A stretch of DNA of 64,000 nt, taken from the NCBI GenBank assembly GCA_032718475.1, contig JAUCBJ010008896.1, positions 1-64,000 on the forward strand. The letters are read 5' to 3'. The DNA comes from Nemertoderma westbladi. Taxonomy: Eukaryota > Animalia > Xenacoelomorpha. Positions 9,155 through 51,234 of this stretch are shown here, one piece after another. A program made the translations under genes and the position numbers. The notes under the pieces are model-generated. The model was not told the origin of the DNA and ran no database searches. It saw only the letters and a list, made by a program, of their open reading frames with translations. The stretch's first letter is position 1; the number at the start of each line of letters is the position of its first letter.

Positions 9155-9175
9155 GTTAGTTTGTTTTTAAGGCAG

Positions 9176-12100: not shown

Positions 12101-12300
12101 CTCTGATCTCATAACCCCACTACGTCCCAACTCATCTCTGATCTCATACCCTCACTGCGTCCCAACTCATCTCTCTGATCTCCCTAAACCCACTGCGTCC
12201 CAACTTCTCACCGATCTCCCTATCCCTACTATGTCCCAACTCCTCTCTAATCCCCCTACCCTCACTGCGTCCCAACTCATCTCTCTGATCTCCCTACCCT
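9176..12300. repeat. 36-bp C-rich minisatellite array 1 (about 85 units)
   Basis: Consensus CTGATCTCCCTACCCYCACTGCRTCCCAACTCCTCT, with 33- and 35-bp variants. It degenerates at the 3' end. Confidence 0.97.
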
Positions 12301-12722
12301 TGCCTGAACCCTACGCCGTTTCAACCAACCGCGACCAATTAATCGTTTGGTATCCTTAAGCGTTTTAATAGCCCCAAAAATGTTGTTTGTCCGGGAATTA
12401 TTTCAGTGTTTTTCTTATTTTTTTTTAGCAACCAACAATTCTCTGACTGATATTCGCTCCGGGTATAAGTTTATTTTCTATATAGAGTTTATTATTATCG
12501 CTTCACCGTACTCTGTCACACGAGAATAGCATTAAATAACTCAACAACCGTTTGGTTTTCTGAGACGAAATTACCACACCATCTAGCGGTTGTATTATAT
12601 TATTGCTTTTCTTATTATAAGTATCCGATAATAAAGTAGAAACTAGATACAATTAATTTCTTACAATTTCCAGGGCTAATCTCGCTATTTTTCATCGTTA
12701 TATATCATTATTAATATATTAA

Positions 12723-22349: not shown

Positions 22350-22939
22350 TTAAGCTTTATGATTTAATATAAAATAAAATATCATTGTTCATTTTATTTG
22401 TTATTGAATTCATTATATAGATGTTATTGAAATACAAATAATATTTAATTCAATATTGTTAGAGAATTATATACTACGGTAATATTTATTTCAGGGCGCC
22501 ACCGGGCGTCTTCAGGGCGCCTCCGGCCGTTCCCGGGCGCCACCGGGCGTCCCCGGGTGCCTCCGGGCCCCTCAGGGCGCTCATGGGCACCTCAGGGCGT
22601 GTTTTATCAGGACCCCACGAGTGTGGTTTTTTGTGTAGTAAAACCAAGCAATTATATTATATAAACGTAAACGCACCTCTTTAAAACCTAACACCGATAA
22701 TAATAAACACATTATATAATGCAAACAATGAAAATATGTAGAAAACAATTTTAACATAATTATATTTATTTTAGGCGATTTACCGTGTCCAGTGACCTTG
22801 CCGCTTGTGAAAAAGAGACACATCCCACCGCAAATTTTGACAATATATTGAAAAGGCTTTATGACGAGTTTCCCATTTAGAATTCCTTTAGTCAGTACAT
22901 CGAATGAAATGTGACCACCGACCAACCTCAAACTTATAC

Positions 22940-25121
22940 TGTTACGGTATATGGCGCTGTATCCACAGTATTAGTCCATTATGCAGTATGCAGTATTAGT
23001 CCATTATGCAGTATGCAGTATTAGTCCGTTATACTGTACGTAATATTAGTCCGTTGTGCAGTATAATTATTTAGATAAGGTGCAGTGTGGTGACATTTAG
23101 GTAAGGAAGTTAAAACGCCCATATATTTTGCATCCATTCATTTTGTATAGTATGTAGCCCTACCTACGTAATTTTGTATTAGGATATATGTAGATAGTTC
23201 CAGGGTAGCGAGTTTACTCGGACCCTGGATTTTGTGCTTGCTGATATTAGTTTGATAGGGCTAGCATATAGGGACGCTGTCCTGGCCATTCAACAGCCAG
23301 AGACGTGATCCATTACCATATATGGTAATAATTTGAGGGCATAGGGCTACAATCCGGTCTCCTTATTGGATTAACTGCTTCCAGGTTGGTTTAATGCTAG
23401 CATGGACTGGAGAGCCAATGGGAGAGCGATTGAGTCACCTTATTGCATCACCCCATCCGGATCACCTATAAATTGGCGGTGTGCCGGTAGGGCCTTTTTT
23501 GTTGTTCATATGTTCATGCCTTATCACATGACACACCCCTGTTACAATTTACTTGCTGAGCTGTCTCTAATTTTGTATTAGGATATCGTATTTTCTGCAA
23601 TTTGCTAATTTTGATTAATTTCTTGGAATGATTTGCTAGTACGATTACTTTGCTTGTGTTTCTCAATAATTCCTTCGATTACTGCAAATTACAATCGAAC
23701 TATGATTTCTACCTTTGATTGATGGTTCTATGTGATTCTTTTCTGCGCAATAATCCCAAGGGATTCCTGAGACTGTCAGACTTTGTGATTTGCATGCGCC
23801 GCTACGGTAGCTATTAGCATCATGGAGGGCTAAGGTGCCAGTGGGCGGTGGGCGCATCGGGGGGTTGAGCGACTAGGAGAGAGCGGAGGATTCAAAGCGG
23901 GCAACGCTGGCCAGGGTCACCGTTGCGGGCGGGTATCTTGCACTGCGGCACGCAGACCGATCGCCGGTACAGTATCTAGGGGGCTGATGATCCAGGTTTT
24001 GTCTCTATTTAGTATTAGGGGGGCAGGAATTGGGTTAGTTAGGAATCCTAGATGTACCCGGGAGAGGCCTGCGCGTAGTACAACGTTGAGTGTGGAGTAC
24101 GAGTAGTGAATTGCACAATTGTAAACTGTGATTTCTAACGCTGATTGGTGTGTTATTGAAGTGTGCCTAAGATTACGAATGCTTAGATAGGCGCTCTTTT
24201 TTCCTTTGATTGATTTCTATTTCTTAGTTACAATAATTAGTTATTGATTAGGTCAAAGTAATACGGCAATTTAGGCTATTACTAGCGAAACCTGTTGCGT
24301 GATAAATTAGAATTACGTATTCTGGAACTCTTAGTAATTAGTACGCTGTTAAATATTTGTGACTGTAATTAATTAGTAAAAAATTAAGAATTAGTACGCA
24401 GCATAGCAGAGAGTAGCTAAGGTAATAATTAGTGTACTGTAAACTATTCACGCTGAGCGGTTATTTGCATTAGCGGGCAATCAGCTAGAACGCACTATTC
24501 GGTACGCACGATACGCTAGTAATTTTGCTGGCCTAAAGCCAGTCGCGGGCAGTTTTAGACTCGGAGTGGTATTATCCACGTAGAAACAGATACTGTACCA
24601 TTTTGATATTTTAAATATTCTCGCATTCACACATTACGTTAGGGAACCTCCAGTATTCGCGATTAGAAAGACGTAGGTAATAGCGTGCTTTAATAGTGAT
24701 AAAATTAGGCGTAAGAATACTCTGAGTGCAAGGCCTCTCGCACTCGTCTTAAGTAAGCTTAGGGAGCCAACTCGGGTTTATTGTTTTGGTTATTCCTGCG
24801 TGGCTCATAGATTCGAACAGTTAGCTCTCTATCGAGCAATCGGTAGAGAAAGGAACAAGCGATTTTGCAGGAGTTGTGTAAATTTAGTAAAATATATTAG
24901 CGGACGGCAGATTAGCGCCATCTAACGGTAAGTAGCGGTTTGTATTTAGCAACCCTTACAATTTAGTAATAGCACACTCCTGATCCCCTTTACTTAACAG
25001 TAGAGCAGTCTTTGTGTCTTATTGGTTAGACGAGAACTTATTAGGTTGGCAGAAGGATATTAACGGGTATTGGTCTGTTCAACAGTTCTGCTGTTAGTAT
25101 AGAGGTCGCGGTTGTTTATCA
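22940..25121 (+). repeat. 5' LTR (2182 bp)
   Basis: TGTTACGG...GTTTATCA, a direct repeat of 39432-41613. I found only four A/G differences by eye. Confidence 0.97.
23410..23475 (+). promoter_or_regulatory. Putative LTR promoter (CCAAT and TATA boxes)
   Basis: agccaatg at about 23412 and cctataaa at about 23465, repeated in the 3' LTR. Confidence 0.5.
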
Positions 25122-26313
25122 GTAATACGCGATTTGTTTGCTGTAGGCTGTAGCGTACAGTAAATAGTGTATTCTTAGGCTGATAGTAGTATCACAGTAT
25201 TAAGTAATAAGTTGGAGCACGTGATCGTCTGCTGTAGGCTATAGGCTAGCGTACAGTAAGACATTGAGTTTATTCTATTAGGTTGTAGGTTTAGATTACT
25301 GTATTCACTGGCTGCGTACAATAGTACAGTAGTACATTAGGCTGATTGTTGTTACTGCGTACGGTAGAAGGACATTTGTTTGCCGTACCACACACACAGT
25401 ATCATTAGGCTGTTAGGTTGGTGTACTGTTTTACTTACTGTACTGCATACAGTGGATGTACGGTAGTGCGTTTTGCTAATTGCGAATACAGCAGTTCCTT
25501 AGGCCTTAGGGCAAACAGTAATTAGTAAGTTTTTTGAAAATTTTAGCTAGGTTTGCGAGAATTCAGTTTTCGGTCAAAATTATTTTGTAAAATTCTAGAG
25601 TTTTGTACCGGTATGTTAGGTAACCGCTTAGTTATTTTATACCATCTGGAGATACATGGCAAGACGGGACTTCTGAGTTTGGGGTTCGTGTGGGTCTGCG
25701 GGTTCGGTTTGCAATCAGCGAAGGGCCTGAATCTTTGGACGCGGACGTGGAATCTCACAGCAAACAAGGTTAGTTGTTCTGTTGGCACCAGTGTGTTTGT
25801 GGAAGCAGTAAAAAATTACCGGTTGTTTAACTGCGAAGCTGAACTCAATTTATTAGTTAGGATATTTAGGTTTAGCCGGCCATGGTTTTTTGAATCGCTC
25901 AAGTTAGAGAGAGAGTTAGAGAGAGTCGCAACCCGAAGATGTAGCCACGCGCTAGTGGATACATATAATATTTGAAATTAAAATTACGTTGATTGGAGCT
26001 ATATATATAAAATTAGAAATATTCGGGTGGCAAGTTTATTTTGAATATTTTGTATTAGATTCAAAGTTATTTTGTGCTATACCGGTATTTAATACTATAT
26101 AGTAGCTATATAATAATATTTTTTGTTTAAATATTGTGTTAGTATTTGCTATAACTATATACCCCATTAAATTCACAATATTGCATTGCGAATTTATTTG
26201 ACATTTGGACCAACTGATTATTTGACAAATAATTTGACCGTATTTCGGTTAAATTACAATTATATCTCGAACTTTTGCGAGATTTTTGCCGGAAGGCAAA
26301 CATTATTTAGACT

Positions 26314-29300
26314 ATGAGTGTCTCAGACAAAGAGGCACTAGAGGACAGCTATGAGACGGCGGCTGGACCGCCGACTGACGATAGCGTAAATATTACTGTT
26401 GATGACAATGCCGACTATGACGACGCAGCGAGCGACGCTGACGTAAGTGAACAGGAGGACGAGACAGTGACTAGTGAGGAAGAACAGCAGCCTCAGGTAA
26501 TAGTATTAGGACCCCCTACCGCTACTGATAGGAAGGACTGTACGGCAGCCCGGACAGAGGTGAGTGATAGGGAGGGTAGTGTAGTAGAAGCGAGAGCCCG
26601 GAGCCCGGTTTCCAGACCTGTGGGTATGGTAAGTGCCGTGGTCCCGACGGCTGTTAGGAGTACCCGTAGTTCCCGAAATAATCCTTCAAGTCCACCGAGC
26701 GTAAGTCAGGTGAGCGAGAGAGAACTTGATATCGCGATAAAGAAGAAACTTCGCGCGCATGCCGGACATATAACTCGGACGGCGGACAAGGTAAGGAAGA
26801 TGTTAGCTGACCCAGCGAACATCGGGAGGGTAGAGTTAGTAGAGATTAGAAGAGGATATAACTCAGCGTTATTCAAGCAGACGGAGGAGCTTGCAGTCCT
26901 AGCGAAGAAGGCAGTAGAGTCTCAGTCGAGCGATGTAGCAACGAGGATTTACGACAGGGTTTTAGCAGCCTTGTTAGAGCACCGCGAGTTATCGGAGCGA
27001 TTCCGACGAGTTAGGACGGAGAACTGGCTGCTATGGGCATCACAAACGCAGGCGACTCAGGTGAGTGACGCAGAGTTAAGAGACTTAGTGGAGCGGGAAG
27101 AGATCCAAGATAAGGAAGAGCGCCGTTATCAGAGGGAAGTTACTAGCTGGCTGATGCAGAATGGAGTGGTGGTACCAGGCCAGGTGCTACCGACGACGGA
27201 GAACATTCAACAGAGGACGTTGACTCCACCCGACGACGCATCTAGAGACAGCGGCGATTCCCAGGTTAGTCACGCGCGAGGTAAGGTAATATGTGCTAGA
27301 TCCCTTGTTTCTCACAACTCGGCGGAGGAGAGAAGACGCCGACTAGACGAACAGCAGGCGGAAGTTTTGCGTGCACAGGAAGCACGGAAGGAAGCCGAGC
27401 GGGAACGGGAGCGCACACGTAAGTTGGACGCAGAGTTACGAGAGTTGGAAGAGATAAGTAAGCGCGAGCGAGCGGAACGCGAGCAAAGGGAACGTGAACT
27501 CCAAGCCGAGCGCGAGCGCGAGGAACTCGAATGCGAACAGAGAGAACGCGAACTCCAACTCGAATGCGAACGGGAAGCGAAGAAACGCGAACTCCAACTT
27601 GAATGCGAACGGGAAGCGAAGAAACGCGAACTCCAACTCGAACGCGAACAGGAAGCGAAGAAACGCGAACTCCAAGCCGAACGCGAGCGCAAGAAACTCG
27701 ATCGTGAACAGAAGGAGCGCGAGCTTCAACTCGAACGCGGACGCAAGGAACGCGAACTCGAGATCGAGAAAAGAAGACGCCCATTGTATGAAGAAAAGGC
27801 GCGAGTGGAAGAAGAGAGCGCAGCGAGACGAGCGAGGGAAGAAGAAGAGCGTAAACTGGCGCAGTTGGAAAGTGCGAGATTAAGTTTAGAGAGCGAAGAA
27901 CGGACTAGGAAGGCGAACGAAATCGCCGAGAAGGGGATGCGAATGCTCGAAGAATGTGGGGCGAGTGTGGGGACAGAGTTGCGAGAACTGTTCGCACTGC
28001 AGAAGGCCGAACAGGAAGCGAGAACTCCGACTATACGCGAGTCAACGACGACCAGAATTCCTATACCCGGTCCAGCTATTACGAGTACACGGATCGCTAA
28101 ACCGTTCTCTACATATCGCACGCCAGTTGGTATTAGTGCTTCACCCATCGCCCAGGATCTACATCATCGGAACGCCGCACCACTGTATACCGAACGTGAC
28201 AACGGAGAATTTAGAGAAGAAACTCCGACGGGCCGAGTATTTGGCGAACCGAACCCGCGGGTTTGGAATACGCGGACGGAGCGCCGACCCAGTTCGACGG
28301 AGAACTTCCGGGTTAAACCGGAAGAGGGATCATATGAGAGACAGTGGATTACTCAGATAGAGCCGACTATACAACAGAACCCTAGCCAGGAATTTATTAC
28401 GAGGGATGAGTTAAGTGCTAGTTTAGCGCAAGCTATATCGCCGCACATCCAACCTATAACGGACATGCTTAGCAACCTACGGTTAAAGGAAGCAGCCCAG
28501 GTAAGAAGTAATTCTAATCCTAGCAGGCCTGAGTTAGATAAAGTCCAGCCTAGTCAACGAGTACGCATATCGGAGGAGACTATACCACATAGACCTCAGG
28601 TAAGGACGCCTGTCCCGAATATCCATAATCCCAATTTCGAAAATTCGGCAGAAAGATTTATTGAGGAAGCTTGGGTCAGGGCCTCGGCGCGCAAACCATC
28701 GCGAGCGCTAAGGACTGACACTGAGTCAAGTGATGAAGAGGAAGACATGAGACGTCAGAAGTCCCGAAACTATAAGGAAAGAAGGACGGACGCGGAGCAG
28801 GTAAGTTGGAACCACCGGGAAAGGACCAGACTTAACAACCCTGCGGAACTAAACCATTTGTTAACCCGGAACGACGCAACCCTTAGGGACATAGGTAAGT
28901 TTGCTGCTAGGCAAGGACTGCCGACGCAGCAACCCCAGAAGTTTATGGGTAACCATAAACATTGGAGGACCTTCAAAACCTATGTCGACGAGCAGCTAAC
29001 CAACAGCACCTTTACTCCCAACGAAAAGTTCAACTATTTGCTTCAGATGCTCCATCGAGAACCTAGAGCCATTGCTGATAATTTCGTCGGTAATGAAAGA
29101 GCATTTGAGTTAGCGATGAAGACGCTTAGTGACATCTACGGGAATAAAACCAAGATGGCGCAGTCGATAGTAGAAGACTTGGGTAAGGGCGGAAGGATTA
29201 CAACTCCGTTAGAGCTGTTGAACTTAGCGAACGCTATTTCGAACGCATTGGACATCTTGAGGACGGTGAATCTACCTCATCATGGTGATCACGCCGAAGT

Positions 29301-32300
29301 TTTGAAAAGCGTAATAAGACGTTTAAACATGCGTTACAGACAGAAATGGCGCAAATTAGAGAATAAGTTGGAGGGCCAAGGTAAGGTGTTGACACTTCAG
29401 CATATTCATGACATGATAGCCACAGACGCAGTAGCAGAGATTAAATCAAACTTCTCAGAAGAGAATATGAGGGAGTCTAAACCTGTTACCGGTAAGTCTA
29501 TGGTAAGTTTTGACGATGACAGGACCACTGTGACATTTAACTCAGTAGACAGATATAATTCGAATACCCCAGCCTTTAGATCAGACTCGCGAGTATGGTC
29601 AGGTGAGCGGTTAGATAGACCTAGGTTAAAGCAACAGGAGTTGCCGGATGGATTTGTAGGTTGCCAATACTGTTTACTAAAGGAGGTAAGATCTGACGAC
29701 CATAAGTTAGATAGTTGCAGACAGTTCAAAGAATTAAATTCGGAACAGAGAAGAGTTCAAGTGCGGACGTTGGACACCTGTTGGGCATGTCTTGCGCCAG
29801 GTCATGTACGGCGGCAGTGCCCGAACAGCAAGGACGGATGCATGGAATGCGGCAGACTACATCACAAGTTGCTACATGCGGATTTCCACACCCCAACGGA
29901 CCGTTACTTACAGCGAAATCCTCAAAGGAAGGGGAGCAAAGAACCCGTATCGATAAGGAGGAATACGTACACTGGCATCCAGGACGATGGTTACCAACCA
30001 GGTTCGTCGGACGAGGATGGCGAGTCGAGCGCGAGAGAAGTGACCTGCCAAGGTTTCACCGCGGATAGTTCATCGACCAGCGCGCGGACGTATTTATCAT
30101 CGGCCACGTCGGAAATATTTAGCGTGATTCCGGTGAAACTCACTGGCGATAAGGGATCGAAGCGAATATATGTGATGTTGGACACTGCGTCCACATTATC
30201 TTATATCGACGAGGAAGTGGCGAGAGCCGTTTCTAGCTTCCAGGACGCCGAGGAGATCCAAATAGAGTTGAAGTCTATGCATGGGGTAGGAGACCTCAAG
30301 GGACACAGAATTTCGGTGGAACTAGATTCCCTACTTCCGAGAGACCAACACACTCGACAAGAACGGAAAGCTTTGCCATTGGACGGATTTAAGTGTCTAG
30401 CTATGAAGGGATTCGGCAGGCAGTTAGGTAAGGTGCCGCCGATGAGTCCCATAGCACAGGAGTATTTTGACAAGCTCAGGATACCCAGACACCAGGTAGG
30501 TTATAGGAATGTTTCTATGTTGATTGGTGCAGAACAGCTGATCGCACACCAGATATGGGAAACGAGACCAGCTGAGCCGCATGTCAATGGACCACATGCC
30601 CATAGGACTATACTAGGTTGGTATACACGAGTACCCATGTCTTATGAGTTTACAGGTGGCGACAAGCCAATGAATAGATACGACGAATTACAGCCTATAG
30701 CTGAACCACCGTTAGTAGAACCACCAGACATAGACGAGTTTAGGAGAACCTGTATTGACCACTATAGTGACTTTAGCGAGTCGGACGAGGAGTTGATTCC
30801 CGATAATGTTAGGTTGTCGGAACCACTTCATAACGACCGGACAGATAGTGAACCCGAGGACTACTGTTATCAGACCCGTGGGTCTGGTTCAGCGGCCCAC
30901 GCTACTTATCTGACTAACGTTTTGACTTATACAGACATAGTGGAGGGTCAAGTGGCTAAATATCGAGACCTAGACATTTTCCAATACAGTGAGGAGGAAT
31001 TACAGAAGGAATTGATACGCCAGGACCTCGAGACAGGAGCCAGAACCGTCGAATGGCTGGATAGGGACGCAATGGAACCCGGTGGATATGACCTAGCCAT
31101 GTCTACTGATGAGAAACGGTCGCTGGAGATGATGGAAGACACCATACGTCTGCTACCGACTGGACATTTTGAAGTTGGAATGTTGTGGCGTCGACAACCA
31201 CCTAAGTTGGAGAACAACTACAGCTTAGCCTTGAAAAGATTAAACGGAGTAAGGGCTCGGTTGTTGAAGAATCCGGACATTAGGGAGAAGTATTGCGCCC
31301 AGATCAACAACTATTTCGCCAAGGGATATGCTGGGAAGGTAGAGGACCCTGACTTAGTGACAGACCAGACTTATTACCTTCCACACCACTATGTGACTCA
31401 CCCTGACAAGCCAGACAAAGTCCGAGTAGTCAACGACTGCGCAGCAGTCTATAGAGGTATGTCCCTGAATTCAGAGTTGATGGATGGTCCCAACCTGAAT
31501 AACTATTTGATTGGAATACTGTTGCGTTTTAGACAGCGGCGATTCGCATTTACTTGTGACATCGAGGCGATGTTCCACCAGGTAAGAGCCTGTAAGGCAG
31601 ACCAGGATAGCCTTCGATTTCTCTGGTTTGAGAATGAAGACTTATCCGGCCCAGTGGTTACATACCAAATGTACGTTAGGATATTTGGCGCCCGCGATAG
31701 TCCGAACGGCACGCTGTTTGTTCTAAAGAAAACGGCAACAGCCCAGATTGGTAAGTATCCAGTAGAAGTAATCGAGTCTATATTGAGAAACTTCTATATG
31801 GACGACGGATTGGTGTCCAAGGACACAGCGGAACAAGCCATAGAAGTGGCTCACGGCCTGCAAGAGTGCTTGGCTACAGGGGGATTTCCTCTGACCAAGT
31901 TCACTACGAACTCGGAGGCCCTATTAGAGTCGTTCCCGGTAAAAGATTGCGGGAGCGGAGACATAGAATTGGGGGTAGAACCAATCCCCATGGCGCGAGT
32001 ACTGGGACTCGCTTGGAATCCGAACTCGGATAAGTTCCAGGTAAGAGTTAGATTTGAGCCCAGTAGCCCAGACAAAGTTTTGACAAAGAGAATTTGCTTA
32101 TCGACATTAAGTAGACTATTTGACCCGATGAACTTTATCAGTCCGGTTATATTACAGGCACGAGCGTGCATGAGGAAAATTTGGTTGTCCGACTTAGAGT
32201 GGGACGAACCAATATCTCCTATACATGCAAAGCAGTGGAGGGAGTGGGAAGCCGAGTTGCATCTGTTGAAAAATATAGATGTACCCCGTTCCTACTTTCC

Positions 32301-34791
32301 GAATCAGCTGGTATTTCCAACTGATTTAGAGCTACACCTGTTCAGTGACGCAAGTGACACCGGCTTTGGTATGGTAGCCTACCTTCGCCGAGAGGTAAGT
32401 CAGGACAAATTTGAGACGGCCTTTGTGACTTCTAGATCAAAGACAATGCCGGTCAAATATATGACTGTCCCTCGTGCAGAGTTACAGGCGGCTGTAGTTT
32501 CGGTCGAGGTAAGTAAGCAGATAACTGAGGAATTAGATACGACATTGACCTTATTCTATTGGACGGACGCATCCTTGGTGTTAGTATACATTGCGGCCGA
32601 CAATATTGCACTAAAGACATTTGTGGCCAATAGACGCGCTCAGATCGTTGACTTTTCGACGAAGGAACAATGGAGACATTGTCCGGGAGTGTTGAACCCG
32701 GCCGACATAACTTCGAGAGGTGCAATGCCGGCGGAATTCTGTCAGGAAGAGTCTCAGGAGTTTTGGTTGCATGGACCTGATTTTCTAACAAGGACACAGG
32801 AACATTGGCCAGAGCGACTAAAGATAGTGACCAATCCGATGCCTGAAGATGCAGAAGTCAAAGTGGAGAAAGTCTCTAAGTTGAAGTCTAAAGCCAAACT
32901 TAAGTCATTGAAGCGGCCTGAAGAGTCATTGGAGCGGCCTGAAGAGTCATTGGAGCGGCCTGAAGAGTTATTGGAGCGGCCCGGAGACCTGTCAGACCAA
33001 CAGACTTACGTGACTACTAGGTCAGGAAGGGTAAGTTACGACGTAAAACCACCCTTACAGACTAGACGAGAGTCACAGTTGGTAAGTGACGGACAGAAAA
33101 TGACCGACACAATGGATCCTTTGGTTTCCAAACCTGCGGGTTTGGATTCGAAACTTCCATTGGTTAACGGACAACCGTCGCTGGCATTAGAGTCATGCAG
33201 TATTTATGACAAATTACTAAATTCGTCTGCCTCTTGGCTGACAATTTGTAAAAGAACTGCGTGGTTAAGCCGATACGTTTCGTACCTTTGTTTAAAACAT
33301 TCGGAACATTTAGGAGAACGAACGAGCACCAATAGTGAGCGAATTCGGAAATTGAAACAACCTCTGACGGAGGATGAGATTGATCAAGCGGAATTAAAGC
33401 ATTTGAAACATTATCAAATGTGTGCCTTCCCAAAAGAATTCCATCTATTATCGGCTCAACGACCAGTTCTCTATAAACCCCTTAGAAAATGGAGTCCATT
33501 AATCCATAAGGGTTTAATTTGTCATAGATCGAGAATCCAGACTGTCGACATAAACTCACAGTTTCGGTTCCCAGTGATAATCCCTAGTCACCCAATAGAA
33601 TTGCAAAGAGCGATTTTATGGGATATACACAAGAGGTTGCATCACGCGGGAAGGTTACACTGTCTGTCGGCAGCGAGACAGCGATTCATTCTATTGCAGC
33701 CAAGCAGGGCAGTCGGCACTATGTATGACGCCTGTCTGGTTTGCAAGAGAGTGAACGCCAGAGTATTGGAACAGGAGATGGCTGAACTCCCGGAAGCGAG
33801 AGTGCAGGCATATGACCCACCCTTTACGAACACAGGGGTGGACTGTTTTGGTCCGATTGAAGCAAAGAGTGGACGGCTGACCCACAAGCGATGGGGTCTG
33901 CTATTGACATGTATGGCGAGTAGAGCCATACACATCGAGCGTGTGGCAGACATGTCGACTAAATCTCTGCTCCTGGCCTTAAAGAGATTTATGGCCAGGA
34001 GAGGACTAGTAAAGGCGTTCTACTCTGACAAGGGTACAAACTTTGTCGGAGGGAATAGCGAGTTGAACGCGGCTCATAAAGCAGCACAGAATAAGGAAAT
34101 TTCTGCAGCACTTTTGCCGCAAAGAGTTGAGTGGAGATTCAATACTCCAGAAAGTCCTTGGAGAGGAGGAAGTTGGGAGCGTTTAGTTCGCTCTGTAAAG
34201 CAGGCCATTGCTAAGACGTTGCCTGTAAATAAACAACTTACCGACGAAGAATTGGTTACAGCTTTCATTGAAATCGAGCATACACTAAACTCGAGGCCGA
34301 TAGCCATGTTGCCAGACGGTGTTGCATTAACGCCGAATCATTTGCTAATGCAGAGTCCAGCATTTCTTGTGCCGGCATCAGAACCCATTAGTGCCGACCT
34401 ATATAGTCGTAAAAGCTGGAAAGTAACACAGTTTGTGGCGTACACATTCTGGGAATATTGGCGGAAATACTATCTTCCCACCATATCCACCAGAACAAAG
34501 TGGTACAAAACGGTTCGGAGTCTCCAAAGGGGAGATTACGTATTGATAACCGAGCCGATTATCAAGAGAAAGTATTGGGAGACGGGAGTGATCTTGCACA
34601 CACACCCAGACGTGCAAAACATAGTGCGCACAGTCACTGTGAAAATTAGGTGCAAGTGTCCGCACCCAAAAAAGTGTAAAACTAATGGTTTACACACCTT
34701 GGACCGACCGGTCCAAGATATTGTGTTATTAGAGGAGACACGTATCGAGACGGGAGATTATAATTTGTCTCCTGCCTCAAAACTGAATTAG
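26314..34791 (+). CDS. BEL/Pao gag-pol polyprotein (2825 aa)
   Basis: Gag core KFMGNHKHWRTF..EKFNYL, triple Cys/His cluster ending CMECGRLHHKLLH, protease LDTAS, RT (YYLPHH, DIEAMFHQV, FYMDD), Pao-type RNase H LHLFSDAS..VPRAELQAA..NPAD..SRG, and integrase VDCFGP, SDKGTNF, GGSWERLVRSVK. Confidence 0.97.
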   Translation: MSVSDKEALEDSYETAAGPPTDDSVNITVDDNADYDDAASDADVSEQEDETVTSEEEQQPQVIVLGPPTATDRKDCTAARTEVSDREGSVVEARARSPVSRPVGMVSAVVPTAVRSTRSSRNNPSSPPSVSQVSERELDIAIKKKLRAHAGHITRTADKVRKMLADPANIGRVELVEIRRGYNSALFKQTEELAVLAKKAVESQSSDVATRIYDRVLAALLEHRELSERFRRVRTENWLLWASQTQATQVSDAELRDLVEREEIQDKEERRYQREVTSWLMQNGVVVPGQVLPTTENIQQRTLTPPDDASRDSGDSQVSHARGKVICARSLVSHNSAEERRRRLDEQQAEVLRAQEARKEAERERERTRKLDAELRELEEISKRERAEREQRERELQAEREREELECEQRERELQLECEREAKKRELQLECEREAKKRELQLEREQEAKKRELQAERERKKLDREQKERELQLERGRKERELEIEKRRRPLYEEKARVEEESAARRAREEEERKLAQLESARLSLESEERTRKANEIAEKGMRMLEECGASVGTELRELFALQKAEQEARTPTIRESTTTRIPIPGPAITSTRIAKPFSTYRTPVGISASPIAQDLHHRNAAPLYTERDNGEFREETPTGRVFGEPNPRVWNTRTERRPSSTENFRVKPEEGSYERQWITQIEPTIQQNPSQEFITRDELSASLAQAISPHIQPITDMLSNLRLKEAAQVRSNSNPSRPELDKVQPSQRVRISEETIPHRPQVRTPVPNIHNPNFENSAERFIEEAWVRASARKPSRALRTDTESSDEEEDMRRQKSRNYKERRTDAEQVSWNHRERTRLNNPAELNHLLTRNDATLRDIGKFAARQGLPTQQPQKFMGNHKHWRTFKTYVDEQLTNSTFTPNEKFNYLLQMLHREPRAIADNFVGNERAFELAMKTLSDIYGNKTKMAQSIVEDLGKGGRITTPLELLNLANAISNALDILRTVNLPHHGDHAEVLKSVIRRLNMRYRQKWRKLENKLEGQGKVLTLQHIHDMIATDAVAEIKSNFSEENMRESKPVTGKSMVSFDDDRTTVTFNSVDRYNSNTPAFRSDSRVWSGERLDRPRLKQQELPDGFVGCQYCLLKEVRSDDHKLDSCRQFKELNSEQRRVQVRTLDTCWACLAPGHVRRQCPNSKDGCMECGRLHHKLLHADFHTPTDRYLQRNPQRKGSKEPVSIRRNTYTGIQDDGYQPGSSDEDGESSAREVTCQGFTADSSSTSARTYLSSATSEIFSVIPVKLTGDKGSKRIYVMLDTASTLSYIDEEVARAVSSFQDAEEIQIELKSMHGVGDLKGHRISVELDSLLPRDQHTRQERKALPLDGFKCLAMKGFGRQLGKVPPMSPIAQEYFDKLRIPRHQVGYRNVSMLIGAEQLIAHQIWETRPAEPHVNGPHAHRTILGWYTRVPMSYEFTGGDKPMNRYDELQPIAEPPLVEPPDIDEFRRTCIDHYSDFSESDEELIPDNVRLSEPLHNDRTDSEPEDYCYQTRGSGSAAHATYLTNVLTYTDIVEGQVAKYRDLDIFQYSEEELQKELIRQDLETGARTVEWLDRDAMEPGGYDLAMSTDEKRSLEMMEDTIRLLPTGHFEVGMLWRRQPPKLENNYSLALKRLNGVRARLLKNPDIREKYCAQINNYFAKGYAGKVEDPDLVTDQTYYLPHHYVTHPDKPDKVRVVNDCAAVYRGMSLNSELMDGPNLNNYLIGILLRFRQRRFAFTCDIEAMFHQVRACKADQDSLRFLWFENEDLSGPVVTYQMYVRIFGARDSPNGTLFVLKKTATAQIGKYPVEVIESILRNFYMDDGLVSKDTAEQAIEVAHGLQECLATGGFPLTKFTTNSEALLESFPVKDCGSGDIELGVEPIPMARVLGLAWNPNSDKFQVRVRFEPSSPDKVLTKRICLSTLSRLFDPMNFISPVILQARACMRKIWLSDLEWDEPISPIHAKQWREWEAELHLLKNIDVPRSYFPNQLVFPTDLELHLFSDASDTGFGMVAYLRREVSQDKFETAFVTSRSKTMPVKYMTVPRAELQAAVVSVEVSKQITEELDTTLTLFYWTDASLVLVYIAADNIALKTFVANRRAQIVDFSTKEQWRHCPGVLNPADITSRGAMPAEFCQEESQEFWLHGPDFLTRTQEHWPERLKIVTNPMPEDAEVKVEKVSKLKSKAKLKSLKRPEESLERPEESLERPEELLERPGDLSDQQTYVTTRSGRVSYDVKPPLQTRRESQLVSDGQKMTDTMDPLVSKPAGLDSKLPLVNGQPSLALESCSIYDKLLNSSASWLTICKRTAWLSRYVSYLCLKHSEHLGERTSTNSERIRKLKQPLTEDEIDQAELKHLKHYQMCAFPKEFHLLSAQRPVLYKPLRKWSPLIHKGLICHRSRIQTVDINSQFRFPVIIPSHPIELQRAILWDIHKRLHHAGRLHCLSAARQRFILLQPSRAVGTMYDACLVCKRVNARVLEQEMAELPEARVQAYDPPFTNTGVDCFGPIEAKSGRLTHKRWGLLLTCMASRAIHIERVADMSTKSLLLALKRFMARRGLVKAFYSDKGTNFVGGNSELNAAHKAAQNKEISAALLPQRVEWRFNTPESPWRGGSWERLVRSVKQAIAKTLPVNKQLTDEELVTAFIEIEHTLNSRPIAMLPDGVALTPNHLLMQSPAFLVPASEPISADLYSRKSWKVTQFVAYTFWEYWRKYYLPTISTRTKWYKTVRSLQRGDYVLITEPIIKRKYWETGVILHTHPDVQNIVRTVTVKIRCKCPHPKKCKTNGLHTLDRPVQDIVLLEETRIETGDYNLSPASKLN

Positions 34792-35560
34792 TGTTGGACG
34801 CAACTCACTTCGTATGCATTCCTCGTATGCAAATACAAGGAAATGCATAGGAGCGGGGTTGTGGTGATTTGCGTTGAGTTTTGTCTGGTGGGTATCAAAA
34901 CAAAATTTTATTTTCAAAAATTTTGGAAAATTTAAAATTTTAAAAATTAGAAGTGAACCCAAGACAATTCCAGACGCTGTGTATAGACGCGTTTTAGAAT
35001 TCGTCTATAGATAAACAGTAATTTGAAAAGTCGTGAAGCCTGGAAAATAGCATTTAGAAACCATGGTGACGGCTATATTACGTAGGAGTATAAATTGAGT
35101 TTAGCAACTTCCACAGATTGGTGCCAACAGTACAACTAAGGTGCTAAAGGTTAGTAGCACCAGAGGCGTACATGGACCCCACTCAGTAGTTTGCAGGATG
35201 TGTGATGTTCGATTATCAAACCTGTGGGTTTGGTATAGTCGAGTATTGTGGCTATGGTCCTTTCTAACTACTGTAGTTTAGTACGAGTAATGGGAGTAGT
35301 TTGGGCATCAAAAAGTGAGTTGGTCACGGCCAGTTTATCTCCAAAGTTTTTGCGCTATGCATGGGAATAGGTTAGAGGATAGTTAGTTAGGAAGAGACGG
35401 GATCTAGAGAGTCGAACCTGAACTGCTGGAAGGCGGGGGGGGGGGGGGAGGGGTTCGGGAGGTCTGTCCTTCGGCGACATCTAACTGATTTACCCACAGT
35501 GTAGTTGGTTACGTAACGGCACTTATTGGGATATATATATATGTATATACGCGTAACATA

Positions 35561-38500
35561 ATGGAGAGGGATATTAGAGCGCAACCGCGCAGAGGATTTA
35601 CTGCCAGAGAGGAGGCGGAGCTACCATTCGCGCGACCAGGATGTAAAGACTCTAACGTTTACTACCATGGGCGGTCCGTGATGGAGCTGAACGGGAAGTA
35701 CAAACCAAGTTATGATAAAGAATTACGGAGAGAAAGAATGAGAGCGTTGGGGGACCGGATGGAAGTCTTGCGGAGAGAGTATCGCACGCGGTATCCCTAC
35801 GACTTTGCTTTGGACGTGTGCGACATTAGCGCAGATCCGGACGAGGAAATCGCACGACTATACCATATGAATATGTATTTACGACATGAGGAGCCTCTAC
35901 CTGCAGTCCGAGACCAGTTCGACGGAATGCACCTGTATCGGAGGACTCGAGGCGAGGATCAGGAGACGCCGAAAGTCTTCAGCGTATACAAGCTCTTCTA
36001 CAAGTGTGGTGAATGCATGAATAAACAGGACGTGGCAATTCCCGACCGATTAGACGAGCAACATCCGGAACCGATATTAACGCGATGTCCAGCTCACCAA
36101 TTCCTTAGATACAACGAGGGAGGTTACCCGATGAGCAACCCGATGATCAGTATCGACTTCAGCGGAAAGCGACCTCCGAGACCCATTACGCCGACCGTTA
36201 CGACATTAGATCCGTATACGGAGATTAAACCCTGTTCGACACCCAGTTTGATAGAGACGGCAGCGGCCATTTCGCTGTACCGAGCCTACAAGGATCTAGA
36301 GGCGCGGCGCGAAGCGGCGCGGGACTCGGGTACCAAACCCGTGGGTTTGGAGCTCTCGAGTCCCTGGACTGCGTTTACTTCACCTCACCGAGTGAGAAGC
36401 CTCACGCCTGAGCATCAGGACGACATAGACGCGTTGCGGCAGGAGGAGCGAGCGGCGAAGGCGAAAGAGTTATTTGAGAACAGGATAGCGGAGTATAATA
36501 AGACCGCGGATAGACATCAAGAGGAGACGAGGAGAGTGACCGGATTTGTTCCACAGGTCGTATCTCAACCCGGACCGGTGTATTATTCCGACGGCACCGA
36601 ACCTGCGATATTAGTAGATCATCCGGAGTCGCGAGAAGCGATACGATTCTTGCCGATGGTAAGAATGGCGGACCATTGGAACGTTGACTGTCTACGGGAA
36701 GTTTTATGCGCGAAGTTCTTGCGTGATGTCCCAATGCAGATCACAGATTACGACACTTTGGACAAGATTGGAGCTCCGGGGAAGGAGAGTAAGTTATTCG
36801 GATGGTTGGATAAGTACATCAAGGTATGGGTCGCGGTGGCTACATTCCCAGATGACGAGGAAGTAGACCAGACGTGGCTGAGGGGGAAGGATCCTAGGGA
36901 ACAGATTTTGGAGGTATGCAGGCGAGGAGGTATGCACGGAGCGGAGCGTATCGACGCCAGGATGTTACCAAAGAAGGTTAGAGAGGCTATTCTCAACCAA
37001 GATTACGTCAAGGTGGGATCGGGAGTCCAGAGCGATTTGGAGAGCGACTTCAACGCCATGACTGATCTGGAAGATAGATTGCCGAGACCGTTTGTCGACA
37101 CCAAGCTATTGTTGCTATGGGCACAGGATATTGGAATTTATAGGGAGTATCCCAACTCTGCCAAGACTGGTATGGGCTTTATAGCACACTTGTTGTATAA
37201 TTGGGACTTTAAGTTAAAGACGCAGAAGAAGTACGAGGAGGCGTATGGCGAATACAACACGCCACCGGGAGCGGAGTTCAAATCCCACTTCAAGCGGCAA
37301 GCGTTAGTGTATTGGAACATTTGCGCGCCACCCCGTGCGTCGCTACAATATTATTTGGTGCTTGAGTCGAACACGGTGACTTGTTTATTAGCGGATATCG
37401 TTGCGCGAGTTTTGAAGCGTCATCCATTGGTATTCGGAGGAGATCAATACGTTCGCTCGAAAGGGGGAATCCAATCCGACGTGATGAAGCGTTTCTTAAC
37501 CCCGTTCTTCAACCAATCGTTAGAGAATACGTCGATGGTGAGGAGAGGATTAGCGATATTCGAAGGAGTATATCGACAGAACATCGGAGATTTGGGAGAC
37601 CGACCGTCGATGGAATATCCGACGCCAGAAGCTTTGGAGAAGTGGTTCGGGAATCAAACCCGCGGGTTTGGTACTCCCTTCCACTCGGAGGCTGATAGAC
37701 CTGTTAAGGAGGGCTGGCCGGAAACGTTAGTAGAGGTGTTCGGAGTAGATCTTCCGGTGGAGAAGACATATCCGAAACGAACGCGGGAGGAAATATTGGA
37801 GATAGAGGACAAGGGCGAGGATGTTTACTTTGTTCCGGATCGACAACCGTTGACCGGAGAGGACGACATCGTATTAGACATTGGGAAGGAAGGAAGTGCG
37901 AAACCGATTGGAGACCTCATATACGAGAGGGCCTGGTTTGCACAAGCGCGCAGGTGCAAATTGTGCGGCAGCACAAGGCACAATCTAAAGTCGTGCGACG
38001 CGGTAATAGAGGCGGCGCATAAGGTCTGTCGTTGGTGCAATGAGACCGACCATTCGTTTCACACGTGCACCGTCTTCATTTCTCAATGTGGATATTGTGG
38101 AGTAAAAGGACACCGTAGCGCGAGATGTCAGCTGCGAGATGATTCCTTTCAAAACCATAGCGCTAACCTACTTCGGGAGATGTTAGATAAGTGGGAGAGT
38201 GTGGCGGATTACCATATTCAAGCGCAGATGCGTTGGTTACCATTTAAAGCGGGATATGGGTTTTGGGCAGTAGACCCATCGCATGTTGCGTACGAGCCAT
38301 ATCTACAATCGCTACCACAATATCAGGAGCTCATCCTAACTGCTCAAGACCTTCCACAGAACACTGGAGTTATCGTAGTCCGAGAATACTTCAGACAATT
38401 GAACATGGACAATAAGTACACATGGAACTTCGTTGCTATTTGCGATCGCATCACGAAGGGTGTATTTACGGAGACTAGAAAAGTGGTACGCGCGCGAGGT

Positions 38501-38995
38501 GATTGGAGGATGGCGGCTATACAATACCGCAACGAATTCTTGTTGACTCATGTGCCAGTGGGTTCATTGACCGCCGAGAGGATACAGGAACAAAGGATCG
38601 CAGCGACCACAGCGACGACCGCTGGAGCTCAAGGCTCGCGGAAAGAACCAGGAGGAGGGGTCCAAGACAAGCGTCAAGTCAAGGACGACCACTACCACTC
38701 CATTATAGAAGCTCAACGGTTGCAGCGCAAGGCGCAGGGGGCGTCTGAGAAAGCGCGTGTGCAACTGCAGAAGGAAGAGTTGGCGGAAGCGACCACGGGA
38801 GCGCGACAATTGGGACGAGGCCGAGGGAGAAGTTCGAGCCGAGAATCTATCGGGGCTCAGGGAACGTCGTCGTCGGTTCCGGGGAGTGACGCCTCACGGA
38901 CGCCGTCAACGGAGTCGACTAGAGGTAGATTAGTGTATCTGGGAAGGGGACGAAAGAGAGGAGCGAGCCCAAAGAACCCAGGAGCGGGTCGATAA
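35561..38995 (+). CDS. Retrotransposon ORF2 (1144 aa): DEDDy 3'-5' exonuclease-like domain plus three CCHC zinc knuckles
   Basis: Intact ORF inside the LTRs. LPKKVREAILNQDYVKVGSGVQSDL, FVDT, GMGFIAHLL and YWN..PP....QYYLVLES resemble the WRN/EXD/MUT-7 exonuclease pattern. CX2CX4HX4C occurs three times at about 37955-38128, followed by an RG/S-rich tail. No signal peptide or TM segment, so not env. Confidence 0.8.
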   Translation: MERDIRAQPRRGFTAREEAELPFARPGCKDSNVYYHGRSVMELNGKYKPSYDKELRRERMRALGDRMEVLRREYRTRYPYDFALDVCDISADPDEEIARLYHMNMYLRHEEPLPAVRDQFDGMHLYRRTRGEDQETPKVFSVYKLFYKCGECMNKQDVAIPDRLDEQHPEPILTRCPAHQFLRYNEGGYPMSNPMISIDFSGKRPPRPITPTVTTLDPYTEIKPCSTPSLIETAAAISLYRAYKDLEARREAARDSGTKPVGLELSSPWTAFTSPHRVRSLTPEHQDDIDALRQEERAAKAKELFENRIAEYNKTADRHQEETRRVTGFVPQVVSQPGPVYYSDGTEPAILVDHPESREAIRFLPMVRMADHWNVDCLREVLCAKFLRDVPMQITDYDTLDKIGAPGKESKLFGWLDKYIKVWVAVATFPDDEEVDQTWLRGKDPREQILEVCRRGGMHGAERIDARMLPKKVREAILNQDYVKVGSGVQSDLESDFNAMTDLEDRLPRPFVDTKLLLLWAQDIGIYREYPNSAKTGMGFIAHLLYNWDFKLKTQKKYEEAYGEYNTPPGAEFKSHFKRQALVYWNICAPPRASLQYYLVLESNTVTCLLADIVARVLKRHPLVFGGDQYVRSKGGIQSDVMKRFLTPFFNQSLENTSMVRRGLAIFEGVYRQNIGDLGDRPSMEYPTPEALEKWFGNQTRGFGTPFHSEADRPVKEGWPETLVEVFGVDLPVEKTYPKRTREEILEIEDKGEDVYFVPDRQPLTGEDDIVLDIGKEGSAKPIGDLIYERAWFAQARRCKLCGSTRHNLKSCDAVIEAAHKVCRWCNETDHSFHTCTVFISQCGYCGVKGHRSARCQLRDDSFQNHSANLLREMLDKWESVADYHIQAQMRWLPFKAGYGFWAVDPSHVAYEPYLQSLPQYQELILTAQDLPQNTGVIVVREYFRQLNMDNKYTWNFVAICDRITKGVFTETRKVVRARGDWRMAAIQYRNEFLLTHVPVGSLTAERIQEQRIAATTATTAGAQGSRKEPGGGVQDKRQVKDDHYHSIIEAQRLQRKAQGASEKARVQLQKEELAEATTGARQLGRGRGRSSSRESIGAQGTSSSVPGSDASRTPSTESTRGRLVYLGRGRKRGASPKNPGAGR

Positions 38996-39431
38996 TACAT
39001 TATGGCACAGGGCGACAGACTCTAGATATATACATCATCGTCGCTCTGATGTATATTGTAGCATTTGAAAATTTTCGACTAGACTCGTATACACTAGTTG
39101 AGTTATTTGAATTTATATTATGAAAGAGGCTAAGGAAGTGATTGGGGAGACAAACCTGCGGGTTTGGCTTACTCCTTTCACTTGCCCTAGCAAAATTTTT
39201 ATATTTGATTTTGTATGTAGTAATCATTATGTAGTAAGAATGAACGAGAAACAATATTTTGTAAATTTAATTTGTATGTAATTCATTATGCAATATCTAT
39301 GGCAATATTTGTAAATAGTAGAATTATTATGTTATTTAGATTGGTTGGAAGAAATTTATTTTGTTTTGTATACATCACCTTATACTCTTCTACAATTGGA
39401 GGGAAACATTATATGATTTCCCTTGGAGCGG

Positions 39432-41613
39432 TGTTACGGTATATGGCGCTGTATCCACAGTATTAGTCCATTATGCAGTATGCAGTATTAGTCCATTATG
39501 CAGTATGCAGTATTAGTCCATTATACTGTACGTAATATTAGTCCGTTGTGCAGTATAATTATTTAGATAAGGTGCAGTGTGGTGACATTTAGGTAAGGAA
39601 GTTAAAACGCCCATATATTTTGCATCCATTCATTTTGTATAGTATGTAGCCCTACCTACGTAATTTTGTATTAGGATATATGTAGATAGTTCCAGGGTAG
39701 CGAGTTTACTCGGACCCTGGATTTTGTGCTTGCTGATATTAGTTTGATAGGGCTAGCATATAGGGACGCTGTCCTGGCCATTCAGCAGCCAGAGACGTGA
39801 TCCATTACCATATATGGTAATAATTTGAGGGCATAGGGCTACAATCCGGTCTCCTTATTGGATTAACTGCTTCCAGGTTGGTTTAATGCTAGCATGGACT
39901 GGAGAGCCAATGGGAGAGCGATTGAGTCACCTTATTGCATCACCCCATCCGGATCACCTATAAATTGGCGGTGTGCCGGTAGGGCCTTTTTTGTTGTTCA
40001 TATGTTCATGCCTTATCACATGACACACCCCTGTTACAATTTACTTGCTGAGCTGTCTCTAATTTTGTATTAGGATATCGTATTTTCTGCAATTTGCTAA
40101 TTTTGATTAATTTCTTGGAATGATTTGCTAGTACGATTACTTTGCTTGTGTTTCTCAATAATTCCTTCGATTACTGCAAATTACAATCGAACTATGATTT
40201 CTACCTTTGATTGATGGTTCTATGTGATTCTTTTCTGCGCAATAATCCCAAGGGATTCCTGAGACTGTCAGACTTTGTGATTTGCATGCGCCGCTACGGT
40301 AGCTATTAGCATCATGGAGGGCTAAGGTGCCAGTGGGCGGTGGGCGCATCGGGGGGTTGAGCGACTAGGAGAGAGCGGAGGATTCAAAGCGGGCAACGCT
40401 GGCCAGGGTCACCGTTGCGGGCGGGTATCTTGCACTGCGGCACGCAGACCGATCGCCGGTACAGTATCTAGGGGGCTGATGATCCAGGTTTTGTCTCTAT
40501 TTAGTATTAGGGGGGCAGGAATTGGGTTAGTTAGGAATCCTAGATGTACCCGGGAGAGGCCTGCGCGTAGTACAACGTTGAGTGTGGAGTACGAGTAGTG
40601 AATTGCACAATTGTAAACTGTGATTTCTAACGCTGATTGGTGTGTTATTGAAGTGTGCCTAAGATTACGAATGCTTAGATAGGCGCTCTTTTTTCCTTTG
40701 ATTGATTTCTATTTCTTAGTTACAATAATTAGTTATTGATTAGGTCAAAGTAATACGGCAATTTAGGCTATTACTAGCGAAACCTGTTGCGTGATAAATT
40801 AGAATTACGTATTCTGGAACTCTTAGTAATTAGTACGCTGTTAAATATTTGTGACTGTAATTAATTAGTAAAAAATTAAGAATTAGTACGCAGCATAGCG
40901 GAGAGTAGCTAAGGTAATAATTAGTGTACTGTAAACTATTCACGCTGAGCGGTTATTTGCATTAGCGGGCAATCAGCTAGAACGCACTATTCGGTACGCA
41001 CGATACGCTAGTAATTTTGCTGGCCTAAAGCCAGTCGCGGGCAGTTTTAGACTCGGAGTGGTATTATCCACGTAGAAACAGATACTGTACCATTTTGATA
41101 TTTTAAATATTCTCGCATTCACACATTACGTTAGGGAACCTCCAGTATTCGCGATTAGAAAGACGTAGGTAATAGCGTGCTTTAATAGTGATAAAATTAG
41201 GCGTAAGAATACTCTGAGTGCAAGGCCTCTCGCACTCGTCTTAAGTAAGCTTAGGGAGCCGACTCGGGTTTATTGTTTTGGTTATTCCTGCGTGGCTCAT
41301 AGATTCGAACAGTTAGCTCTCTATCGAGCAATCGGTAGAGAAAGGAACAAGCGATTTTGCAGGAGTTGTGTAAATTTAGTAAAATATATTAGCGGACGGC
41401 AGATTAGCGCCATCTAACGGTAAGTAGCGGTTTGTATTTAGCAACCCTTACAATTTAGTAATAGCACACTCCTGATCCCCTTTACTTAACAGTAGAGCAG
41501 TCTTTGTGTCTTATTGGTTAGACGAGAACTTATTAGGTTGGCAGAAGGATATTAACGGGTATTGGTCTGTTCAACAGTTCTGCTGTTAGTATAGAGGTCG
41601 CGGTTGTTTATCA
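39432..41613 (+). repeat. 3' LTR (2182 bp)
   Basis: Direct repeat of 22940-25121, followed by TSD tatac. Confidence 0.97.
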
Positions 41614-41659
41614 TATACTGTATTACTGTTGACAACACTAAAAGACATTACAGCCCACT

Positions 41660-50614: not shown

Positions 50615-51234
50615 GTAAGTTGGTATTTTATATACAATATTTCATTTTCTAATTATTATTAACATTTGCTTATAATTTCTCATACTGAGGTTGAGGTCTA
50701 CCGCTTCTACCTTAGTCTAGATGCTCCTCTCTTGCTTCATATGAACTGATCCTTGGGATTGAGAGAACTGCTGAAAAATCTCGATACAAAAGGGAAAAGA
50801 TTGTCTACAGGTAGTGCTAAACTCTAGTGCTAAACAAAACCAGCAATACCTACCTAACAAATTACGTGGAAATCAGTAATCTTACATTTACATACATTAA
50901 GTCACAAAACCATAGCCCATCGAGATGAGTGAGTGAACATTAACAGTGAATGGTCTGGAAAATCGAAATCGAGAAAATCGTTGGGTCACAGCTGACAACA
51001 ACGACGCTATGAGCATAACAATACTCACATGCACAAGTGAGCCGGATGTGGTGATGGAGCCATCCAGGACCATCGGGGAACCACGTCCCATATAAGTCCA
51101 ACACCCAACCACATCAATAATTTGTGATTATACCTGATATTTAAAAAATAAATTTTTTAATTTTGAGACTTTTTTTACAAATAATAATTACAAAATTCTG
51201 TGTTGTTGTGCTGATAAAAGCTGTTCTATTGCAG

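Follow-up and report, generated by a model that had tools for sequence, protein, structure and literature searches.

A predicted long-range RNA duplex around gag-pol in a BEL/Pao retrotransposon and its possible part in the splicing of ORF2

In Nemertoderma westbladi, an intact BEL/Pao LTR retrotransposon carries two non-coding stretches, the leader and the pol-ORF2 spacer, that are complementary to each other although they lie more than 9 kb apart, and that are predicted to pair in the sense RNA. The window analysed is a 64,000-nucleotide stretch of DNA that contains the whole element. The complementarity between leader and spacer is real. On balance, the sequence favours a role in splicing, in which the duplex would hide decoy donors inside gag-pol and join 25610 to 35500 to give an ORF2 mRNA. 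LTR elements with a 3′ ORF must all balance spliced against unspliced RNA, and to our knowledge the way in which invertebrate LTR elements do so is mostly unknown. The element offers a candidate solution that comprises a 9.7-kb RNA bridge, an intron full of decoy donors avoided by other BEL elements, and a dispersed array of hairpins with a plausible element-encoded reader. Its exact coordinates make it possible to study how a donor is chosen over a long intron and what the so far unexplained exonuclease-like ORFs of retroelements may do.

The host element

22935-22939 and 41614-41618: target-site duplication TATAC, 5 bp
22940..25121, + strand: 5′ LTR, 2182 bp, TG...CA ends
26314..34791, + strand: gag-pol, 2825 aa, BEL/Pao, one ORF
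35561..38995, + strand: ORF2, 1144 aa, with a DEDDy-exonuclease-like domain, three CCHC knuckles (aa 799-856) and a basic tail
39432..41613, + strand: 3′ LTR, 99.8% identity with the 5′ LTR

The element shares with BEL/Pao (Belpaoviridae) a pair of TG...CA LTRs flanked by a 5-bp duplication and a single gag-pol ORF in which Pfam finds DUF1759, Peptidase_A17, Integrase_H2C2 and DUF5641 in this order; the ORF also has the zinc knuckles, Pao peptidase A17 region and integrase zinc finger of the group. PF05380 is present in all relatives at 33-42% identity. The element differs from the group in its 2.2-kb LTRs, 1.2-kb leader, 2825-aa polyprotein and exonuclease-like ORF2, and in its 22 donor motifs, YGYG hairpins and long-range duplex. 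No TGG-led tRNA primer-binding site stands immediately 3′ of 25121, and no convincing self-primer was found. Scans of viral contigs for pol and ORF2 returned no relatives, and Rfam gave no match.

Complementarity of leader and spacer

25647..25890, + strand: 5′ arm of the duplex, which buries a cryptic donor at 25769
35056..35343, + strand: 3′ arm of the duplex, with local hairpins at 35140-35161 and 35204-35247

The core of the duplex in the predicted joint fold comprises 12 helices and 101 pairs, 10 of them G-U, with pair probabilities of 0.83-1.0. The nested antiparallel complementarity described in the initial annotation is found at the positions given there, and both of its local hairpins (25805-25834 and 35209-35242) are predicted in the fold. 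Five of its seven helices recur, with 25771-25790/35119-35138 paired at 19 of 20 positions and 25838-25853/35090-35105 at 16 of 16 including one G-U. The other two need correction: 25798-25806/35108-35116 is out of register, the actual helix being 25795-25804/35109-35118, and 25732-25738/35160-35166 is absent from the fold and replaced by 25694-25697/35164-35167.

The comparison with shuffled controls that had been proposed as a check comes out in favour of the duplex, the joint fold of the arms reaching -218.4 against -163.9±6.2 for 40 dinucleotide shuffles. The binding energy is -40.2 kcal/mol against -22.5±3.6 for the best matches in shuffled whole elements, none of 39 being as good in a test that repeated the search across the whole 14.3 kb internal region of each shuffled element. 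By cruder helix-chain scores the leader-spacer chain is the best in the element, with 1 of 51 and 1 of 50 shuffles higher, and in an unpenalised duplex tile scan, the ranking of which was dominated by GC content, the leader-spacer tile came 12th among 5037. The strength of the duplex is unmatched in 15 of 16 other BEL elements; the sixteenth (L035, -42.3) was dismissed as an LTR-to-LTR artefact with both arms within LTR copies. Energy alone does not choose a strand, with the plus strand at -40.2 and the minus strand at -35.0, and with -46.7 and about -50, respectively, in larger windows. The duplex is assigned to plus-strand RNA because internal G-U pairs exceed A-C pairs 7 to 0, in keeping with the earlier reading of the wobbles as specific to that strand.

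All three changes at paired sites in the one relative keep pairing, each of them one-sided and none two-sided, a result with p of about 0.17 because 55% of transitions preserve pairing. The arms differ there by 4 substitutions in about 434 covered nt, a low divergence that is not counted as evidence because the non-coding stretch 39104-39430 is equally low. That the complementarity is due to chance, or to a decaying inverted duplication of DNA without RNA function, is hardly credible: a crude chain score of only p about 0.04 and the lack of any two-sided change speak for it, but the search-matched shuffles, the wobble excess and the pair-preserving changes in the relative speak against it.

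Splice sites and the production of ORF2

24182..25610, + strand: ATG-poor stretch with 1 ATG against about 30 expected, a putative scanned 5′ exon
24928..25000, + strand: candidate 73-nt LTR intron, ACG^GTAAGT ... pyrimidine tract, AACAG
25608..25616, + strand: candidate splice donor CCG^GTATGT (25611), weak to moderate, 36 nt outside the duplex base
25613..25975, + strand: upstream ORF of 120 codons, its ATG inside the donor motif, spanning the entire 5′ arm
35481..35499, + strand: candidate branch word CTAAC (35481) and acceptor CCACAG^ (35499)

The donor, branch word and acceptor of the initial annotation are all present, the acceptor 61 nt before the ORF2 ATG. Neither splice site is part of the duplex, the donor being 36 nt and the acceptor 156 nt away from its base. 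The above-chance complementary arms sit near the ends of the putative intron, as in intron-bridging duplexes. The donor had been called strong, which is not borne out. It scores 3.8 against 5.5-8.9 for the 22 gag-pol motifs, on a generic self-made matrix that may not fit the host, and its pairing with U1 is -5.5 compared with -10.9 kcal/mol for the donor at 24928. An acceptor of its own follows this stronger LTR donor after 73 nt, and the candidate LTR intron would consume the donor.

Strong donor motifs number 22 on the gag-pol sense strand (26560-33031), for which 150 synonymous shuffles give 5.4±2.1 and at most 11; the antisense strand has one. ORF2 has none (binomial 0.0006). Among the other BEL loci, 83 of 85 have 0-2 strong donors; the excess does not require ORF2, because one BEL element that lacks a second ORF (L074) has 10. 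One gag-pol motif (29385) is changed in the relative. Acceptor-like words occur in gag-pol about as often as expected (7 against 7.5), and a further acceptor candidate stands at 35276. Use of the strong donors for an in-frame fusion of gag with ORF2 was dismissed, because the required phase would put a stop codon in gag-pol. One contig of sequencing run X1, which may be DNA, spans 25610 unspliced; the contigs of this run show no joint at 25610/35500 or across the short LTR intron, a result that says little about splicing.

The earlier proposal that the duplex drives the splicing of a subgenomic ORF2 mRNA holds up in part. The spliced mRNA gains independent, indirect support because 25611 is the best donor remaining between the duplex and the short candidate intron of the LTR, because the ATG-poor 1.4 kb ends exactly at the donor while the spacer upstream of the acceptor holds 12 ATGs, and because strong donors are plentiful in gag-pol and missing from ORF2; the duplex itself may either drive this splice or hold it back. 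If it drives splicing, transcription would start in the LTR, 5′ of the ATG-poor stretch, and the internal donor motifs would load U1 on the long unspliced RNA. The 3′ arm would be transcribed just before the acceptor, the duplex closing as the acceptor emerges and reducing the distance across the 9,889-nt intron to the duplex and about 190 nt of unpaired RNA. The looped-out internal donors would then lose to the donor at 25611 held beside the acceptor, and RNAs without a timely duplex would remain unspliced and provide the genome and gag-pol message.

There are precedents for 3′ ORFs expressed by splicing and for duplexes that bridge introns. Cellular PCCRs, or RNA bridges, are described as lying within introns near the ends, with a spread of about 10 kb (PMC8052449); as far as that description goes, they resemble the present duplex as structures at intron ends that spare the branch point and cover a cryptic site. 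They differ from it in that here the loop is the main coding region of the element, the duplex has many helices and 101 pairs, and unspliced RNA must persist as genome. Cer1 and CERV of C. elegans are LTR elements that express a 3′ ORF from a spliced mRNA and whose unspliced genome must escape retention (PMC10309623). Cer1 belongs to a different lineage, and in CERV the 3′ ORF is joined to gag exons; the available account mentions no long-range duplex for them. A search of the open-access literature found no report of such an RNA bridge in an LTR retrotransposon.

The same junction could be read with the opposite sign, the duplex restraining splicing and keeping the RNA full-length by analogy with duck hepatitis B virus (DHBV), where long-range pairing near a donor and acceptor that flank pol, likewise in a reverse-transcribing element, suppresses splicing (PMC3356268). 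In the joint fold, local stems do cover the donor (unpaired 0.14) and the branch word (unpaired 0.32), but these stems do not outdo shuffled controls (z -1.4 to +0.6) and were dismissed, and the splice sites, which the DHBV structure is described as containing within its paired region, here stand outside the long-range helices; restraint is unlikely. A duplex that acts in the cytoplasm, as a switch between translation and packaging or as a genome-genome dimer contact, and that ribosomes moving along the 120-codon upstream ORF would open, can be combined with the splicing explanation and in place of it is quite unlikely. It would suit an ORF that spans exactly the 5′ arm, is longer than in 997 of 1000 shuffles (3 being as long) and is open in the relative, and arms that are kept together only in unspliced RNA, as a packaging element would be; it leaves unexplained the arm ends beside donor and acceptor and the production of ORF2, and a homology search with the ORF peptide found no recognisable family or relatives. 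ORF2 might also come from an internal promoter or from spliced-leader trans-splicing onto 35500, with another job for the duplex, which is improbable: the acceptor lacks a strong partner donor and AT-rich, TATA-like runs lie at 35530-35549, but the TA run is just 12-30 nt from the ATG and a 1.4-kb stretch poor in ATGs that stops at the donor suits a cis-spliced leader. Ribosome shunting, earlier offered beside splicing, would carry scanning ribosomes over the base of the duplex into the spacer, and is very improbable. In shunts of the CaMV type, a short ORF terminates at the base of the stem and the landing region is free of AUGs. The long ATG-poor leader of the element does reach the duplex, but its leader and spacer lack this arrangement, the sole short upstream ORF stopping about 170 nt before the duplex base and ATGs standing at 35357, 35361 and 35541 between the base and ORF2. 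Shunting is disfavoured because the first two lie just beyond the base; splicing would remove them and a shunt would not.

ORF2 and the YGYG hairpins

25691..25706, + strand: degenerate YGYG hairpin overlapping the duplex helices at 25681-25697, the two folds being mutually exclusive
26616, 28253, 30874 and 33132, + strand: four YGYG hairpins in gag-pol
35204..35247, + strand: extended YGYG hairpin (core 35220) inside a duplex junction
36337 and 37658, + strand: YGYG hairpins in ORF2
39151..39167, + strand: YGYG hairpin in the 3′ untranslated region

ORF2 is related to the DEDDy fold, its family profile matching EXD2 6k17 (E 2.7e-6), with an Atlas lead to PF01612 at 0.89; ORF2 itself has no Pfam match, and a word search with it returned nothing. 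The catalytic residues of a DEDDy exonuclease are not intact in ORF2, the first and last motifs lacking the acidic residues found in relatives in an alignment of about 20% identity. Structure predictions are poor (pLDDT 45 and 46 in two models). ORF2 lacks the signal or transmembrane segment of a retroviral env-like protein, its maximum 19-residue hydropathy being 1.34. The ORF3 of the bdelloid elements Vesta and Juno is likewise an exonuclease-like extra ORF 3′ of pol, reported to be typically made from spliced messages (PMC5408684). It differs in keeping its catalytic residues and in not belonging to BEL elements, and is likened to ORF2 by its published description. Egalitarian has an exonuclease-like domain that, as described, touches RNA stem-loops in a way that does not require catalysis (PMC13186709), with a weak profile match to ORF2 (E 0.015). 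It is a host transport adaptor with other RNA-binding domains, whereas RNA binding by ORF2 is putative.

Nine YGYG-loop hairpins are dispersed along the sense strand of the element. A tentative and rather doubtful extension of the splicing explanation is a feedback circuit in the style of complex retroviruses, independently evolved, in which the duplex would yield the spliced ORF2 mRNA and a catalytically dead ORF2 would bind the nine hairpins, including the competitor in the 5′ arm, block the duplex and license the unspliced genome despite its 22 U1-binding motifs. Neither the ORF2 family nor the hairpin core occurs in any of the 85 other BEL loci. A search of viral contigs for the hairpin pattern gave 32 single matches.

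The element and its second reading frame

The element is an intact LTR retrotransposon of the BEL/Pao group, flanked by a TATAC target-site duplication, and its gag-pol relatives are BEL polyproteins with 33-42% identity.

22940-25121 and 39432-41613: LTRs, each 2182 bp, 99.8% identical
26314-34791 (+): gag-pol, a single ORF with BEL/Pao domains
35561-38995 (+): ORF2, 1144 aa

A canonical tRNA primer-binding site is absent directly after the 5′ LTR (25122-25140), and neither AATAAA nor ATTAAA occurs on the sense strand of the LTR (22940-25121). The LTR carries a hairpin, GAGTGC...GCACTC (24722-24747), also present in the 3′ copy. A loose contig end from X1, a sequencing run containing a relative of the element, has GAGTGT...ACACTC in its place, with both sides changed and the stem preserved.

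ORF2 has no Pfam match and no transmembrane segment. It has in common with seven distant relatives an exonuclease-like domain and zinc knuckles; profiles of these relatives match EXD2 (E 2.7e-6) and the knuckles of Lin28, with a weak match to Egalitarian (E 0.015). The acidic residues of the first and last motif, present in most relatives, are missing in ORF2 in a low-identity alignment, and the domain is therefore probably inactive. Other LTR lineages also have 3′ ORFs that are spliced or exonuclease-like (PMC5408684, in part). A six-codon upstream ORF in weak context (35541-35563) has a stop codon overlapping the ORF2 start (TAATG).

A long-range duplex around gag-pol

25647-25890 (+): 5′ arm, in the leader
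35056-35343 (+): 3′ arm, in the gag-pol/ORF2 spacer

The initial annotation described seven strictly nested pairings between leader and spacer. A joint fold bears out the nested duplex and returns five of them; the register of one is corrected and one is dropped. The core comprises 12 helices and 101 pairs, 10 of them G-U. The originally chosen windows fold together at -218.4 kcal/mol versus -163.9±6.2 in 40 shuffles. Because these windows were picked post hoc, the search was redone on whole shuffled elements, where the real duplex scores -40.2 versus -22.5±3.6 (best-of-four in shuffles) and none of 39 equals it. By two cruder chain scores it ranks first in the element, yet is exceeded by 1/51 and 1/50 shuffles. 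Filters on ORF length, flanks and redundancy kept 16 of 85 other BEL loci, many of which come from related datasets and are not independent; in 15 of the 16 the best duplex is -23.3 or weaker. The duplex of the sixteenth, L035, is an LTR-to-LTR artefact.

Binding energy is alike on both strands. The proposed bias of wobbles toward the + strand RNA holds, with seven G-U and no A-C mismatches inside helices (p ~0.008 under strand-neutral decay), and the duplex looks like a sense-strand RNA structure. X1 contigs of the relative, compared at 98% likeness (the same contigs are found at 85%), cover 25590-25985 and 34931-35229. All three changes at paired sites there (25668 G>A, 35090 A>G, 35132 A>G) are one-sided and preserve a pair; two-sided changes are absent. 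Since 55% of transitions would preserve pairing, p is only ~0.17. A change at 25819 falls in a loop and one deletion lies outside the duplex.

The changes at 35090 and 35132 are both A>G after T, so that A-to-I editing is conceivable if X1 is RNA; over the element A>G and T>C in X1 are balanced (35 vs 30). Downstream of both arms (25917-25940, 35404-35423) stands a similar word, TAGAGAGTCG(C)AACC, and AAGGTTAGT is present within both arms, at 25766 and 35147.

Candidate splice sites and mechanism

25611 (+): candidate donor, CCG|GTATGT, 36 nt from the duplex base
35499 (+): candidate acceptor, 156 nt from the duplex base

The suggestion that the duplex loops out gag-pol for splicing or ribosome shunting to ORF2 is partly supported: the splice-site context favors splicing, the strength claimed for the donor does not hold, and shunting is unlikely. 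The donor scores 3.8 on a generic matrix, not the host's, below 22 motifs in gag-pol, and ATGs at 35357 and 35361 disfavor shunting. One ATG occurs in 24182-25610 versus ~30 expected, the next lying within the donor motif, and 12 occur in the spacer upstream of the acceptor. A stronger donor lies in the LTR at 24928, with a pyrimidine tract and an AG of its own 73 nt further on. Of the donors ahead of the duplex 25611 is then the best remaining, and the duplex itself buries a cryptic donor at 25769. Counting against the reading are a second acceptor candidate at 35276, undepleted acceptor-like words in gag-pol and one internal gag-pol donor altered in the X1 relative. X1, which consists of contigs only and may be DNA, reads through 25611 with no 25610/35500 joint.

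The 22 strong donor motifs of gag-pol lie on the sense strand, versus one antisense, where 150 synonymous shuffles give 5.4±2.1 (maximum 11); ORF2 has none. In 83/85 other BEL loci the largest ORF has 0-2, the exceptions being L047 with 5 and L074 with 10. Strong donor motifs are thus avoided by typical BEL elements, and in this one they pile up precisely in the putative intron. The BEL element L074:195-5864, with its 10 sense-strand motifs (2.0 expected), lacks a second ORF; a donor excess is thus possible without ORF2. The joint occurrence of duplex, donor excess, hairpins and ORF2 rests on one family.

Formation of the duplex would shorten the 9,889-nt intron and shut out internal donors, and the 3′ arm, made just ahead of the acceptor, would suit co-transcriptional closure. 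The internal motifs would be sites of U1 binding, and U1 is known to protect long nascent RNA from premature cleavage. U1 binding can also hold RNA in the nucleus (PMC9074902, in part), which would call for an export or licensing factor, a role held in Cer1 by CERV (PMC10309623, in part). The 5′ arm lies within an upstream ORF of 120 codons (3/1000 shuffles are as long), which could serve to open the duplex once in the cytoplasm. The duplex would work in the manner of those that bridge introns in cellular genes (PMC8052449, in part); a search of the open-access literature, mostly at title level, turned up none described before for an LTR retrotransposon. By analogy with partial accounts of duck hepatitis B virus, the duplex may possibly restrain splicing instead, but local stems across the splice sites are not significant.

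The hairpin array and other features

The hairpin noted at 35209-35242 belongs to a set of eight ACC-YGYG-GGT stem-loops. All lie within the element on its sense strand, spaced 1.1-2.6 kb apart, and six are in coding sequence. The motif was derived from these same copies; chance predicts 0.29 matches to it in the window, and the four in gag-pol compare with 0.05 in synonymous shuffles. A ninth copy, at 25697, is degenerate; it overlaps with the 5′ arm and is incompatible with helices 25681-25697. With all nine copies taken together, pairing holds in 90% of cells and 3/8 pairs show two-sided changes, a level reached by 15-30 of 500 shuffles; this lends modest support to a hairpin rather than a DNA palindrome. 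The exonuclease-like domain of Egalitarian contacts stem-loops without catalysis (PMC13186709, in part), hence the idea that ORF2 may be a candidate reader of the array.

Elsewhere in the window lie an intronless SET-MYND ORF (4215-5699, -) with only distant relatives (25-27%), two ORFs with a fibrinogen C-terminal domain (49679-51978), which point to an animal host, and, at 54418-56429 (-) and 43008-44549 (-), fragments of another retroelement (zinc knuckles, RT) and an ORF weakly matching endonuclease VII. BEL DNA in five bacterial genome bins (L033-L037) is probably eukaryotic contamination. Two long C-rich tandem arrays of a 36-bp unit (9060-12400 and 59000-64000; ~210 copies in total) have open frames on both strands.
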